This document shows, one piece after another, positions 7,102 through 61,841 of a DNA stretch of 64,000 nt. Made by a program: the position numbers and the translations under genes. The notes under the pieces are model-generated. The model was given only the letters and a program-made list of their open reading frames with translations. It was not told where the DNA came from and ran no database searches. The stretch comes from a phage: the sequence record PZ583738.1. One strand, 5' to 3'. Position 1 is the stretch's first letter. Each line of letters opens with the position of its first letter.

Positions 7102-7920
7102 TTAAGAAATTCGTGATGCTGCGAGAGCAGACAAGTCCGCGAAGGACAGGGTAGGCTTGGCGCCTTTTTCTTCAACTGCTTCTGAAATGTAATTCAGTGC
7201 CGCAGCATCGTCTACATTTTTATTTATAGCGGCTTCGGTGATTGGTTTGTCGGTGGGTTCTACCTGACCTTTAACCATTTCAACGATAGCGCCAATTTTG
7301 GTACCGAATGCATCAGAGTATTCCATGCCTTCTACCAGAGAACCAACTTTTTCTTTCTGAGATTCAGTCAGGTCTTTAGTTGCTTCAGTCAACGCAACTT
7401 CACGTTGGACATAATTGATATAAGCATCACGCTTAGAAACTTCTTCGAACAGGTTAGCGGTTTCTTCTTTCTGTTCAGCCAGTTCTTCCTGCATTTCTGC
7501 AACAACATCAACAGATTCTTCCGGAACAACAACGTTGTGCTCAACGAACAGTTCTTTCATGCTGGTGAACATGGATTCGAACAGGTCAGCTTTAATGCCA
7601 CGGTCGACAGCCAGTTTATTTTCAGCAAGCCATTCTTTAGCAACGTGGTCCAGGAATTTAGCTGCAGATTCTTTCAGTTTTTTCTCTGCTTTTTCGTCGG
7701 ATTCTTCTTTATTCTTTTCGACTTCTTCTTCAGCTTTTTCAGCGATGGCGTGAATGTGAGATTCTGCCAGTTTGATGGCGTGTTGCTTGACGGTAGCTTC
7801 GAATACAGTGCCGAAGGTAGCTTTCGCTTCCGGGGACAAATTAACTGATTCGAAAATACTATCGAGAGCAACGGAAGCATCGATATTCTGAGCTTCGGCA
7901 ATGAGTTGTTCTTTAAGCAT
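7102..7920 (-). CDS. 22: prohead core scaffold protein gp22
   Basis: 272 aa acidic coiled-coil-rich protein in T4 gene 22 position. Confidence 0.85.
   Translation of the reverse strand: MLKEQLIAEAQNIDASVALDSIFESVNLSPEAKATFGTVFEATVKQHAIKLAESHIHAIAEKAEEEVEKNKEESDEKAEKKLKESAAKFLDHVAKEWLAENKLAVDRGIKADLFESMFTSMKELFVEHNVVVPEESVDVVAEMQEELAEQKEETANLFEEVSKRDAYINYVQREVALTEATKDLTESQKEKVGSLVEGMEYSDAFGTKIGAIVEMVKGQVEPTDKPITEAAINKNVDDAAALNYISEAVEEKGAKPTLSFADLSALAASRIS
7221..7228 (-). promoter_or_regulatory. late promoter TATAAATA upstream of gene 23 (within 3-prime end of gene 22)
   Basis: Exact motif about 140 nt upstream of gene 23 start. Confidence 0.4.
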
Positions 7921-7949: not shown

Positions 7950-7957
7950 TATTTATA
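7950..7957 (-). promoter_or_regulatory. late promoter TATAAATA upstream of gene 22
   Basis: Exact motif about 30 nt upstream of gene 22 start. Confidence 0.5.
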
Positions 7958-8591
7958 ACGTCTTTAAAGCCTCTGCGAGAGCCATAAAGGCGTCATCGGC
8001 ACTGGTATCGGCAACAGCCGTTTGTGATTCTGTAATCTGCTTTGGTTTGACCCAAGCGTCCGGAGCACTTGGCCCCCATACTGCGTCTACTCCAACCGTC
8101 AATTTAAAACCTTCATTAACGATGCTATAACCTTTTGCTGATTTAGTCAGGGAACCAAGTCCACGACTAGATACACCAGGAATCCAACCTGCTCTTATAT
8201 TTGCAGCAAGTTTATCACCTGGACCATGGTCGCCTTCGATAATACGCGCGCGGCCATATACATCATTCCCTTTCCACCACATTTCCTCGATAATAATTGC
8301 CGCCTGCATAGGGTCAACGTTTGCACGAGGTGGATGGTTTAATTCTCCAAGAGACTGCTTGGTTTCAACCTGTTCGGCGATATAGTCCGCAACGGCTTTT
8401 TCCAAAATATGTTTAGGATAAAGTCGTTTATTACGGTTAACAACTTCAGCTTGTAGGAAAATACCTTCAATATAAAGTCCTGGCTTTAAACCGCTGCTGG
8501 AACCATCATGAGATTCCAACATCGGTACACCATCTTTAATTTCGCCCGGTTGACCCCAGTGTTCGATTAGTAACTCTGGTTTCTGTTCCAT
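7953..8591 (-). CDS. 21: prohead protease gp21
   Basis: 212 aa; GVPMLESHDG, LGELNHPPRANVDP, GWIPGVSSRGLGSL match recalled T4 gp21. Confidence 0.9.
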   Translation of the reverse strand: MEQKPELLIEHWGQPGEIKDGVPMLESHDGSSSGLKPGLYIEGIFLQAEVVNRNKRLYPKHILEKAVADYIAEQVETKQSLGELNHPPRANVDPMQAAIIIEEMWWKGNDVYGRARIIEGDHGPGDKLAANIRAGWIPGVSSRGLGSLTKSAKGYSIVNEGFKLTVGVDAVWGPSAPDAWVKPKQITESQTAVADTSADDAFMALAEALKTL

Positions 8592-40511: not shown

Positions 40512-41202
<691 letters not shown>

Positions 41203-41262
41203 TGTACAAATGAGTGTAGGTGCAGTATTATGTTCCTACACCAATGAACAAACGGAGTTAAT

Positions 41263-41595
41263 ATGAACATCAAAACTTACAACGAGTTTTTAGCCGAATC
41301 CGCCATCAATGAGACCAAATCAATTGATGATAGTGAAGGCTCTCTGAAATTTGGTTTAACCAAAAACGCAGATGGTGTTTTCTTTCAGATTGGTAATGAA
41401 CGTTTTCAAACGTCCAAATATTCCAAAGCTGCAGTTGAAGCTGTCCTGAAATCTGGTGGCAAGTGGAAAGGCAAAGAAGGTACTAAAGAAATTGGTATCG
41501 CTGTTGACGGTGGTATGGCTTATTTTAAAATTGGCGATGAACAATTTATTATGTCTGCTCGCGGACGTAAAGAACTGGCAAAACTTTATAAATAA
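41263..41595 (+). CDS. internal protein with capsid-targeting leader (variant MNIKTYNEFLAES)
   Basis: 110 aa; N-terminus matches T4 internal-protein capsid targeting sequence with L-x-E protease site. Confidence 0.6.
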   Translation: MNIKTYNEFLAESAINETKSIDDSEGSLKFGLTKNADGVFFQIGNERFQTSKYSKAAVEAVLKSGGKWKGKEGTKEIGIAVDGGMAYFKIGDEQFIMSARGRKELAKLYK

Positions 41596-41603
41596 GGTTT
41601 CTT

Positions 41604-41876
41604 ATGAAAACTTTCAATGAATTTTTCAACGAGTCACAATTGAATGAAGAAGTAAAAATTAGTAAAGCAGTCAAATCTATGATTGACAATATCAATCACC
41701 TGTATAGCATTGACTTGACTGACCATATAACAATTGGTAACAAACGCAACTTTTTCGCGTTTGACATTTCAGAACTTGACCAGAACCAAATTAATAACAT
41801 TGAGCGTTTTGCCAATGACAAGGGTCTCCGCCATGAGACAGCTGGTTATAAAAAATATGCAATTTATCTTAAATAA
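41604..41876 (+). CDS. internal protein with capsid-targeting leader (MKTFNEFFNES)
   Basis: 90 aa; CTS-like N-terminus. Confidence 0.6.
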   Translation: MKTFNEFFNESQLNEEVKISKAVKSMIDNINHLYSIDLTDHITIGNKRNFFAFDISELDQNQINNIERFANDKGLRHETAGYKKYAIYLK

Positions 41877-41884
41877 GGCTTCAA

Positions 41885-42127
41885 ATGAAAACTTATCAAA
41901 CATTTATAACAGAATCTTCCCATAGTATGGAAGTTAAACTTGGTCAAGCCCTTGCTGAAGCAGAGCGCCTGTTTGCACGTATCAAAGAACTTGCCGATTC
42001 TGTAGATGCATCATCTTTTAAAGGCGACCAGGGTAAAGTTAAAGCTCTCCTTGCTCTTTGTTCAGACGCGGGTGAAATTGCTAAGAACGGCACCAAGATG
42101 AAAAAACGCCTAGAAGATTTAAAATAA
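41885..42127 (+). CDS. internal protein with capsid-targeting leader (MKTYQTFITES)
   Basis: 80 aa; CTS-like N-terminus. Confidence 0.65.
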   Translation: MKTYQTFITESSHSMEVKLGQALAEAERLFARIKELADSVDASSFKGDQGKVKALLALCSDAGEIAKNGTKMKKRLEDLK

Positions 42128-42175
42128 GTGTACATGATGGGATAACTGTAGTATGATTATCCCATCAACTACTGG
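42128..42175 (+). promoter_or_regulatory. early promoter / stem-loop cassette (PeSL-like): GTGTAC, GGGATAA...TTATCCC inverted repeat over the -10, leader catcaactactggag
   Basis: Repeated cassette, compare 42438, 46472, 57667, 61570. Confidence 0.5.
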
Positions 42176-42182
42176 AGACCAC

Positions 42183-42437
42183 ATGAAAACTTATCAAGAA
42201 TTTATTACTGAATCTGCAAATGCAAAAGTTGAGTTTGCTTATGTTGGTTCGCCGCGTGGCAGTTTTTCCAATGAGGAATTCCGTCGTTCACTGGACAACT
42301 TTATGCAGTTAAGTGCTGAAGTATCGCATGATGGTCGTTATGACATCGTTACTATTAGCGGTTCTGAAGACCTTATCAAAAAGTGGTACAAGCAGAAAGA
42401 TGTTGAGATGCGTTACTATCGTATCCCTAAAAAATAA
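42183..42437 (+). CDS. internal protein with capsid-targeting leader (MKTYQEFITES)
   Basis: Start moved to ATG at 42183 (RBS GGAG upstream, early promoter/stem-loop cassette upstream); N-terminus equals T4 CTS consensus. Confidence 0.7.
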   Translation: MKTYQEFITESANAKVEFAYVGSPRGSFSNEEFRRSLDNFMQLSAEVSHDGRYDIVTISGSEDLIKKWYKQKDVEMRYYRIPKK

Positions 42438-42482
42438 GTGTACTTTTAAATGGGATAGTGTATAATTATCCCATCAACTACT
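42438..42482 (+). promoter_or_regulatory. early promoter / stem-loop cassette (PeSL-like)
   Basis: GTGTAC, 17 bp spacer, TATAAT inside gggatag...ttatccc inverted repeat, leader catcaactactgagg. Confidence 0.5.
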
Positions 42483-42494
42483 GAGGGCCAAAAA

Positions 42495-42716
42495 ATGAAA
42501 ACTTATCAAGAATTTATTAACGAAGCTAAAATGCATGACGAATTGCCGATTCAATCTAAAACTTTTGATGGTACACTGAAGGATTTTAAAAAGTTACCAA
42601 ATGATAAATTGGCAAAACTTACAGGTTCTGTATCTGAAACAGGTGGTAAGGTTACTTTCTCTGCCCGTGGTATTGTCAACCTTAAAAAACTTTTGAAAGC
42701 CGTTGGTGCTGAATAA
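42495..42716 (+). CDS. internal protein with capsid-targeting leader (MKTYQEFINEA)
   Basis: 73 aa; CTS N-terminus; preceded by early promoter/stem-loop cassette. Confidence 0.7.
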   Translation: MKTYQEFINEAKMHDELPIQSKTFDGTLKDFKKLPNDKLAKLTGSVSETGGKVTFSARGIVNLKKLLKAVGAE

Positions 42717-42774
42717 AACAGTTACTGGTCTAGTATATCATAACCTAGACCTATCAAAAAGTGAGGAGAATAAA

Positions 42775-42960
42775 ATGAAACGTTGTGAATTAATTAGAAA
42801 TGTTACTGCCTTTGTTGCTGTTACCACTTTTGGTTTTAGCATGTTTGCTGGCTTTATGTTGAATATGCTTTCAACTTCTGAGAATATAATCTCTTTAGTA
42901 GTTACATTTTTAATTGGTTCAATCTCTTTCGTTATGGATAAAATCTCTAAAGGTGAGTAA
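42775..42960 (+). CDS. small membrane protein (two predicted TM helices)
   Basis: Start at ATG after RBS GAGGAG; hydrophobic segments AFVAVTTFGFSMFAGFML and ISLVVTFLIGSISFV. Confidence 0.5.
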   Translation: MKRCELIRNVTAFVAVTTFGFSMFAGFMLNMLSTSENIISLVVTFLIGSISFVMDKISKGE

Positions 42961-54781: not shown

Positions 54782-55051
54782 ATGAAAACGTATCAAGAAT
54801 TTTTGGCTGAATCTGTATTAAATGAATCAGATGAAAGCCGCATGGCATTTTTAGCTAAGAAAGAAGGCTTTGAGTTTACTTCTATTAAAAAAGTTAATGG
54901 AACTTCATTTAAAGTTGGTGATTGGACCTTTGGTAACAAAGGAAGTGGCCAGTGGCAAATTGTAGATAAATCTGGTAAAGAAGTGGATTATTTGTTTAAT
55001 CAGAAATTGGGTGATATCGCTAAACTTATGGGTCAATACTCTAAGAAATGA
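54782..55051 (+). CDS. internal protein with capsid-targeting leader (MKTYQEFLAES)
   Basis: 89 aa; CTS N-terminus; position between e and denV like T4 ipIII/ipII. Confidence 0.7.
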   Translation: MKTYQEFLAESVLNESDESRMAFLAKKEGFEFTSIKKVNGTSFKVGDWTFGNKGSGQWQIVDKSGKEVDYLFNQKLGDIAKLMGQYSKK

Positions 55052-55100
55052 TGTACATCTCCAAATGATAGGGTTATAATGACCCTATCAACTACGGAGA
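55051..55100 (+). promoter_or_regulatory. early promoter / stem-loop cassette upstream of denV (variant inverted repeat tagggt...accctat)
   Basis: ATGTAC, 18 bp spacer, TATAAT, leader atcaactacggag. Confidence 0.45.
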
Positions 55101-55106
55101 ACAAAC

Positions 55107-55571: not shown

Positions 55572-55871
55572 ATGTTAACTTATAAAGAATTTATCACAGA
55601 AGCTAAAGCTCCTAAAGCATTTCAAATCGGAGTCCAAGGTAATTTAGACCAACAATATGTTGATGCTATTGTAGCAAGCCTCGGTAAACAGGGCGTGCAA
55701 GTGGATTCGGTTGATTTTACTAAAGGCAATACTTTTAATATTGTTACATCTAAAGGTTCTTTAGCTAAAGTTAAAAAGGCCTTTGGCGTAGCACAAGCAT
55801 ATGAAATTGACCATTCTGAATTAGAAAATAAAGGTCGCCAGAACACAATTAAAGGTTCTGGTTCTTTCTAA
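55572..55871 (+). CDS. internal-protein-like protein with CTS-like leader (MLTYKEFITEA)
   Basis: Start at internal ATG of track ORF; CTS-like N-terminus. Confidence 0.6.
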   Translation: MLTYKEFITEAKAPKAFQIGVQGNLDQQYVDAIVASLGKQGVQVDSVDFTKGNTFNIVTSKGSLAKVKKAFGVAQAYEIDHSELENKGRQNTIKGSGSF

Positions 55872-61570: not shown

Positions 61571-61625
61571 CATTTAGAGGTTTACAACACCATAAAAAGG
61601 GTGTACTATTATCCCATCAACTACT
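61570..61625 (+). promoter_or_regulatory. early promoter / stem-loop cassette
   Basis: GTTTAC ... gtgtactattatcccatcaactactgagg. Confidence 0.4.
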
Positions 61626-61637
61626 GAGGAGAACACA

Positions 61638-61841
61638 ATGAGAATTAAAAATATCAAGATTGATGCAGTTAATACTGGTGATGAGGTTGTTATCTATCTT
61701 AATGATTATGCAATCTTTATGGACAGTGCCACTGATGAAGAAGTGGTTGAACTCTTACAGAAAGCTCCATTTGAACTGTGTGAAGAAGATGCTACCCATC
61801 TTTCATCAGCAATTTTCTCATTATCATATGTGGTGGAATAA
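61638..61841 (+). CDS. hypothetical small acidic protein
   Basis: 67 aa after early promoter/stem-loop cassette. Confidence 0.5.
   Translation: MRIKNIKIDAVNTGDEVVIYLNDYAIFMDSATDEEVVELLQKAPFELCEEDATHLSSAIFSLSYVVE

Follow-up and report, generated by a model that had tools for sequence, protein, structure and literature searches.

What are five consecutive small genes whose products begin almost alike and then diverge beyond recognition, and what would such products do? The question is raised by positions 41263-42716 (+ strand) of a 64,000-nucleotide (nt) stretch of phage DNA (sequence record PZ583738.1), which we refer to as the window. The source is a T4-like phage, and the interval between 57B and trna.4 in which the five genes lie is internal-protein (IP) locus 1. 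We consider it probable that these genes, designated A to E, are cassette-like IP genes whose products carry a head-targeting leader, are injected with the phage DNA and mostly counteract host nucleases. An earlier note, made from the DNA letters alone, had described five consecutive small open reading frames (ORFs) here and read them as a diversified cargo array, plausibly of anti-defence proteins. The ORFs are indeed present on the + strand at those positions, and the reading is supported by the targeting determinants of the leaders, by the presence of gp21 and gp22 in the window, by synteny with T4 ipI and by the homology of D to a known inhibitor. The locus has been known since 1994, together with its leader, its variable content and the role presumed for it, and its genes are deposited in GenBank and largely annotated. 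The increments brought by the present analysis are the link between D and an inhibitor of McrBC, the recognition of family A with its predicted Whirly-like fold, and a map of recombination breakpoints.

The leader and the five cargos

The five genes follow one another as listed below (all + strand; a slash marks the predicted cleavage point).

41263-41595, +: gene A, 110 amino acids; N-terminus MNIKTYNEFLAES, leader MN-IKTYNEFLAE/S; phrog_3966
41604-41876, +: gene B, 90 amino acids, Ip9 family; N-terminus MKTFNEFFNES (MKTFNEFFNE/S); phrog_7673, E=2.5e-56; ip9 in VR26
41885-42127, +: gene C, 80 amino acids, Ip5 family; N-terminus MKTYQTFITES (MKTYQTFITE/S); phrog_3499, E=6.6e-41
42183-42437, +: gene D, 84 amino acids, divergent member of the Ip6 family; N-terminus MKTYQEFITES (MKTYQEFITE/S); phrog_8111, E=1.9e-13
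42495-42716, +: gene E, 73 amino acids, Ip8 family; N-terminus MKTYQEFINEA (MKTYQEFINE/A); ip8 in VR5

All M-initiated ORFs of at least 40 amino acids in the six frames of the 64-kb window were scanned with a loose leader pattern. Only eight ORFs were returned, namely A to E and those starting at 44865, 54782 and 55572, exactly the three further genes that had been named before; as none besides these came out, the motif is specific and not a product of chance. In T4, the first 10 residues of IPIII suffice to target proteins to the head, foreign ones included (Black laboratory; review PMC9026906). Within this capsid-targeting sequence (CTS), residues 4 and 7 matter most for targeting and residues 8 and 10 for processing (Mullaney & Black, review PMC9026906), the gp21 protease cutting after L/I-x-E (review PMC9026906). 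All eight window proteins have Y or F at position 4 and F at position 7. Position 8 is L or I, or F in the case of B, and position 10 is E in all except the 44865 product, which has R. The gp21 motif at positions 8-10 reads LAE in A, ITE in C and D, and INE in E; B has FNE there and a second site, L-N-E, at positions 13-15. The claim that the array shares the leader of T4 thus holds for the CTS determinants, while the leader of T4 IPI itself is longer and somewhat different from what had been implied (MKTFKEFTSTTTPVSTITE/A, with the cleavage site at 17-19). The predicted mature proteins of A to E comprise 63-98 residues (6.8-10.7 kDa), resembling T4 IPI* and IPII*, with a predicted isoelectric point of 8.8-9.8 for A, C, D and E and a neutral one for B.

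The machinery on which such leaders would depend is encoded in the same window, where the head-core module is complete (gp20, gp67, gp68, gp21, gp22, gp23 and gp24). Two of its members are of direct concern here.

7102..7920, -: gp22 scaffolding core protein, the structure targeted by the leader; Pfam T4_CASP, E=3.2e-90
7953..8591, -: gp21 prohead protease, expected to cleave off the leaders; Pfam Peptidase_S77, E=8.1e-102

From the conserved residues 4 and 7, the N-terminal CTS of 10-12 residues would bind the gp22 core during prohead assembly. The cleavage motif and the presence of gp21 suggest that the protease would then remove the leader after L/I-x-E, so that a mature protein, mildly basic in most cases, would be released within the head. 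The case of T4 IPI suggests by analogy that the mature proteins would be ejected with the DNA and could act before any phage gene is expressed.

Codon changes relative to close relatives are almost all synonymous (synonymous to nonsynonymous changes being 11:1 in A, 10:2 in B, 9:2 in C and 14:1 in the 44865 ORF), indicating that A to E are genuine genes under purifying selection. Together with the specificity of the leader scan, these changes led us to reject an ORF artefact or chance motif; they also led us to reject diversification through rapid point mutation within the lineage.

The cargos had been described as unrelated after about residue 12, and inside the array this stands pair by pair. 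In a BLASTP comparison of the parts beyond residue 12 among the eight leader proteins (an eight-sequence database), no pair reached an E-value below 0.078, and the mature part of D scored z <= 0.9 against mature A, B, C and E. It stands less well beyond the array, where profile matches hint at distant links of E and A to the 54782 protein. PHROGs assigns A to a family without known function and the other four to families labelled 'internal head/virion protein'.

The most informative cargo is that of D. The leader-bearing gene bas37_0260, located at the ipI locus of phage Bas37 (KarlGJung, MZ501089), is needed against McrBC (preprint bioRxiv 10.1101/2025.11.20.689424), and its product is an Ip6-family protein. 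D is 44% identical to Bas37_0260 over 70 amino acids, and when the mature parts alone are compared, the Smith-Waterman score has a z of 14, a score reached by 0 of 5000 shuffles. Judged by its sequence, D is a divergent homolog of this McrBC inhibitor, and the relationship extends beyond the leader. The two proteins share the leader, about 37% identity over the mature domain and a similar length, and D also follows an Ip5 gene at the same locus. D differs in being strongly diverged, with another C-terminal tail and indels, and its specificity may be other than McrBC. Its close family is rare (3 clusters), and the label ip6 belongs to the VR26 gene at the position of D. Structure prediction gave a predicted local distance difference test score (pLDDT) of 59.8 for D, too low to justify a fold search. 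Since D is homologous to a validated McrBC inhibitor, the anti-defence idea gains direct support, and D brings with it a target hypothesis, that is, McrBC-like or other type IV enzymes.

The family of gene A is small (11 clusters by word-indexed search and, by profile search, 6 of 1.84 billion representatives); databases annotate it only as hypothetical and do not label it IP. All convincing members bear the canonical MKTYxEF leader, which is kept across relatives at 51-98% identity. We regard family A as an overlooked internal-protein family, added by the present analysis. The profile search of the 1.84 billion representatives gave no convincing leaderless relative of the A cargo, leaving the capture of a foreign leaderless gene as the origin of A unsupported. 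The mature domain of A contains an internal duplication, and its predicted fold is Whirly-like, with two beta4-alpha repeats as in the Whirly-like domain of MRP1/2, PBF-2 and Pur-alpha. At 41263-41271, the ancestral leader Met of A is now Ile (ATC) and the start has moved two codons upstream (MN-IKTY...); other members of the family begin directly at MKTY, and the VR26 annotation places the start of A still further upstream.

As for the remaining families, that of C is represented in 497 phage records, T6 and T2 among them, and in Mosigviruses it adjoins the lysozyme gene, that is, the other IP locus. C shares 81% identity with Bas37_0261, the neighbour of Bas37_0260; no phenotype is reported for it in the preprint on Bas37. 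The Ip5 cargo bears a short leader here (MKTYQTFITE, 41885-41914) and a long IPI-like one, MKTFKEFATKTTITE, in bas37_0261 of Bas37 (MZ501089); leader and cargo thus recombine independently. The family of E is found in 108 phage records.

Junction elements, breakpoints and relatives

Of the six junctions of the array, four (before A, C/D, D/E and after E) carry a promoter-hairpin element of about 55-60 nt; the A-B and B-C junctions are spacers of 8 nt. In the element, a -35-like GT(G/T)TAC is followed by a -10 box enclosed in an inverted repeat and by (A)TCAACTAC(T/G)G(A)G, which carries the ribosome-binding site. The copies concerned, including one beside a leader gene at the second IP locus, and the late-promoter match next to B are as follows.

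41202..41262, +: junction before A; GTGTAC, hairpin GTGTAGG/CCTACAC around TATTAT, ribosome-binding site; DNA fold -7.9 kcal/mol, z -2.4
41587..41594, +: T4 late-promoter consensus TATAAATA, 10 nt upstream of the start of B
42128..42182, +: C/D junction; GTGTAC, hairpin GATGGGATA/TATCCCATC around TATGAT, then ATCAACTACTGGAG; DNA fold -9.6 kcal/mol, z -3.1
42438..42494, +: D/E junction; GTGTAC, hairpin ATGGGATA/TATCCCAT around TATAAT, then CAACTACTGAGG
42717..42774, +: E/trna.4 junction; GTTAC, hairpin GGTCTAG/CTAGACC around a -10-like box, ribosome-binding site
55052..55106, +: junction after the 54782 gene; TGTAC, hairpin TGATAGGGT/ACCCTATCA around TATAAT, then ACTACGGAG

The stems of these copies differ in sequence and the architecture is retained; the IP junctions of T4 have the same architecture, and the D/E element matches the ip6/trna.4 junction of VR26. 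Among distinct leader genes, 22% have such an element upstream, as compared with 3.3% of the remaining ORFs (odds ratio 8.2, p=1.5e-19). A search of Rfam returned no curated RNA family at the junction hairpins. Late-promoter consensus TATAAATA matches number 20 in the window, against 5.2 expected. From consensus matches, transcription of the array could proceed from the early promoters of the junctions and from the late promoters.

An element of the IP type is also present at 61580-61640 (+), with GTTTAC ... ATCAACTACTGAGGAG and an ATG at 61638, before a gene without leader; the element is thus not exclusive to IP genes.

The junctions recall the promoter-early stem-loop (PeSL) cassettes of RB49/phi1-type phages (Arbiol 2010, PMC2839356; Comeau 2014, PMC4122927), in which an early promoter and a stem-loop likewise lie between small accessory genes and mark recombination joints. 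They differ from PeSLs in the position of the hairpin, whose arms enclose the -10 box, and in the box ATCAACTAC(T/G)G(A)G that comes after the element. The IP-associated elements of T-even phages have been considered analogs of PeSLs, not homologs (Arbiol et al., PMC2839356).

Comparison with related phages shows where the array has been cut and joined. Homology with VR26 is unbroken to 42229, just past the D leader, resumes at the D/E junction, skips E and resumes at 42750, so that E is an insertion relative to VR26. Homology with VR20 and VR25 breaks at 41892, inside the C leader. The breakpoints relative to all three phages fall in leaders or junction elements. Repoila et al. proposed in 1994, as that work is cited in PMC2839356, that cassettes are shuffled at conserved sequences of leaders and promoters, and this pattern agrees with their proposal. 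The leaders of D and E are identical at 28 of 30 nt, and leader nucleotides are conserved even at synonymous sites; this conservation, together with breakpoints inside leaders, makes it clear that the leader serves recombination as a DNA sequence. On the strength of the breakpoint map, the array would have been built and reshuffled by recombination at the leader-coding segment and at the intergenic early-promoter hairpin elements.

The records closest to the locus are those of DK-13 (97.7% identity over the locus), Yersinia phage vB_YenM_P8 (P8), MN01, RZ and the VR26/SP18 group (Gaprivervirus). The same array of five genes is already in GenBank for P8, DK-13, MN01 and RZ. A comparison across T4-like genomes, which the earlier note had proposed, gives the following picture: 30 loci anchored on 57B contain 0-5 leader genes each, drawn from 14 families in varying order, and one syntenic locus has no leader gene after 57B. 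In T4, the equivalent interval holds ipI only, as had been said correctly. A leader scan of a wider sample yielded at least 190 unique proteins in at least 69 cargo families. Among the matches listed, arrays of one gene are the most numerous (142 cases), followed by arrays of two (36), three (5), four (3) and five (2, the window and P8), five being the largest size among them.

All this places the array within the polymorphic IP loci of T-even phages, described by Repoila, Tetart, Bouet & Krisch (1994, EMBO J 13:4181) according to PMC2839356, PMC3012670 and PMC12373910. Synteny with T4, VR26 and P8 shows that the array lies in one of these loci (57B-trna.4 or e-denV). The likeness covers the position (57B to trna.4, with a second locus at e/denV), the leader, the non-homologous cargo ORFs variable in number, order and identity, and the repeated early-promoter-based elements that flank them, and B, C, D and E belong to families named Ip9, Ip5, Ip6 and Ip8. 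There is no difference in kind; locus 1 of the window has five genes and includes family A.

Proposed roles for the proteins of the array

That IPs are a diverse set of anti-defence proteins, injected and alike just in the CTS, is an idea already published (PMC3012670). T4 Ip1, Ip2 and Ip3 block three different GmrSD enzymes, one each, and the same has been proposed for all genes of the two Ip loci, Ip4-Ip9 lying outside the tested set (Silas et al. 2025, PMC12373910). The window proteins resemble these injected GmrSD inhibitors (Bair 2007; Rifat 2008; Silas 2025, PMC12373910) in leader, use of the two loci, size, charge and expected delivery route. They differ in that their mature domains have no detectable similarity to IPI, IPII or IPIII, against which BLAST gave no match; their targets are thus probably different from those of T4 Ip1-3. 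Most likely, the proteins of the array would act as inhibitors of those host nucleases by which modified T-even DNA is attacked, with one target per cargo. Such inhibition is shown for T4 Ip1-3 and Bas37_0260; homology supports it here for D, and for A, B, C and E we purely infer it.

Several observations weigh against an injected, mostly anti-nuclease array. B has F instead of L/I at the P3 cleavage position, and A has two extra N-terminal residues ahead of its leader. Pfam gave no significant family for A to E, a sequence search of the PDB found no relatives of the window cargos, T4 IPI* included, and A, B, C and E show no homology to any validated inhibitor. The predicted fold of A suggests nucleic-acid binding rather than enzyme inhibition. 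A literature search for virion proteomics in the lineage of the VR-group phages found nothing. As for expression, the promoter calls are consensus matches only, and a generic sigma-70 promoter scan found no overall enrichment of promoter-like sites in the region.

The basic charge of most of the mature proteins and the predicted Whirly-like fold of A, typical of nucleic-acid binders, would also suit proteins that mainly serve the virion by neutralising DNA charge, organising the DNA or assisting head assembly, as has been suggested for T4 IPIII. At low salt, T4 IPs do bind DNA, and head assembly is defective in IPIII mutants (PMC9026906). A housekeeping role, however, predicts conservation, and this is not what the shuffled, non-homologous cargos of the related loci display, with numbers falling to no leader gene at all after 57B. 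Moreover, every member whose function has been resolved (Ip1-3 and Bas37_0260) inhibits restriction, and B is neutral, not basic. We therefore regard service to the virion as unlikely to be the main role. It is more improbable still that the proteins are injected effectors with targets outside defence, taking over the host as the packaged ADP-ribosyltransferase Alt does, or excluding competing phages. Packaged T4 Alt does act on host transcription (PMC9026906), the lack of similarity of A, B, C and E to known inhibitors leaves room for such targets, and the putative early promoters before D and E would permit expression after injection. Yet mature domains of this small size bear no enzymatic signatures in Pfam, presence or absence at the level of strains is typical of arms-race genes, and every tested protein of these two loci is an anti-restriction factor.

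Finally, the leader could be vestigial, or a mere module for recombination or translation initiation, the proteins remaining cytoplasmic and unpackaged. The conservation of leader nucleotides at synonymous sites and the breakpoints inside leaders would agree with this. However, the targeting and cleavage residues are conserved at the protein level over at least 69 cargo families and through many codons, family A retains the leader in all its relatives, and the same 10 residues suffice to package foreign proteins in T4 (PMC9026906). We give this explanation hardly any credence.

A variant of the injected anti-defence array may be put forward tentatively, and we hold it to be rather doubtful: instead of encoding five inhibitors of a single enzyme family, the five genes could be a mixed payload directed against different defence classes. 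A would be an injected, Whirly-like binder of single-stranded nucleic acid; it would not bind a nuclease, but would shield or mask DNA or RNA intermediates of the phage or else sequester an immune signal made of nucleic acid. D would be a re-targeted relative of the McrBC inhibitor. The predicted fold of A does suggest a different mechanism, and if the proposal were true, shielding or sequestering by A would represent a mechanism new among T4 internal proteins.

No phage counter-defence other than the internal proteins is present inside the cell at the moment of DNA entry, and for this reason internal proteins set host range against immediately acting nucleases. Targets have so far been assigned to four cargo families (Ip1-3 and Bas37_0260). 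With an injected, mostly anti-nuclease role as the preferred reading, the array offers five anti-defence candidates in a single phage, which is useful, if not new.

Neighbouring genes and other small-gene arrays

The array is flanked on its left side by genes for deoxynucleoside monophosphate (dNMP) kinase gp1, gp57A and 57B/Acb1, and on its right side by trna.4 and trna.3 homologs and two tRNAs. The two immediate neighbours and the three remaining leader genes of the window are as follows.

40747..41202, +: 57B/anti-CBASS (cyclic-oligonucleotide-based anti-phage signalling system) protein Acb1, conserved left flank; Pfam Acb1, E=1.7e-59; T4 57B in the same position
42775..42960, +: trna.4 homolog, conserved right flank of IP locus 1
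44865..45248, +: sixth leader-like gene, 127 amino acids; long leader MLTYAEFLNRNTITE/S; lineage-restricted ORFan
54782..55051, +: leader gene at the second IP locus, adjoining lysozyme e; 89 amino acids, MKTYQEFLAE/S; phrog_8765, E=2.6e-37
55572..55871, +: leader gene after denV; 99 amino acids, MLTYKEFITE/A; phrog_2667, E=1.5e-41

By its sequence, the product of the trna.4 homolog (42775-42960, +) is small, hydrophobic and probably a membrane protein. In P8 it is named 'prohead core protein', which looks like an annotation mis-transferred from the adjoining IP genes.

The 44865 ORF, with R at position 10 of its product and an I-T-E site at 13-15, resembles the long leader of T4 IPI in this respect, and a late promoter TATAAATA lies at 44826-44833, 30 nt upstream. 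It gave no match in PHROGs or Pfam and is annotated as hypothetical in P8. The ORF corresponds to a single protein cluster, its GC content is 45% as compared with 40% for the window, and its leader is degenerate.

Two further groups of small genes were noticed on the + strand. At 46035-46460 and 46913-47356 lie two paralogs with 43% identity over 75 amino acids (E=8e-18), which have in common a C-terminal AARRA(L/V)ID...SYASNFRK region. At 49325-50346, four consecutive small ORFs (96, 93, 70 and 74 amino acids) form another tandem array of diverged small genes. Their products are paralogs, about 30% identical, which have in common an invariant Trp, two Ser and a terminal Cys, with the C-terminal motif W-V-S-S-S-x-x-C.

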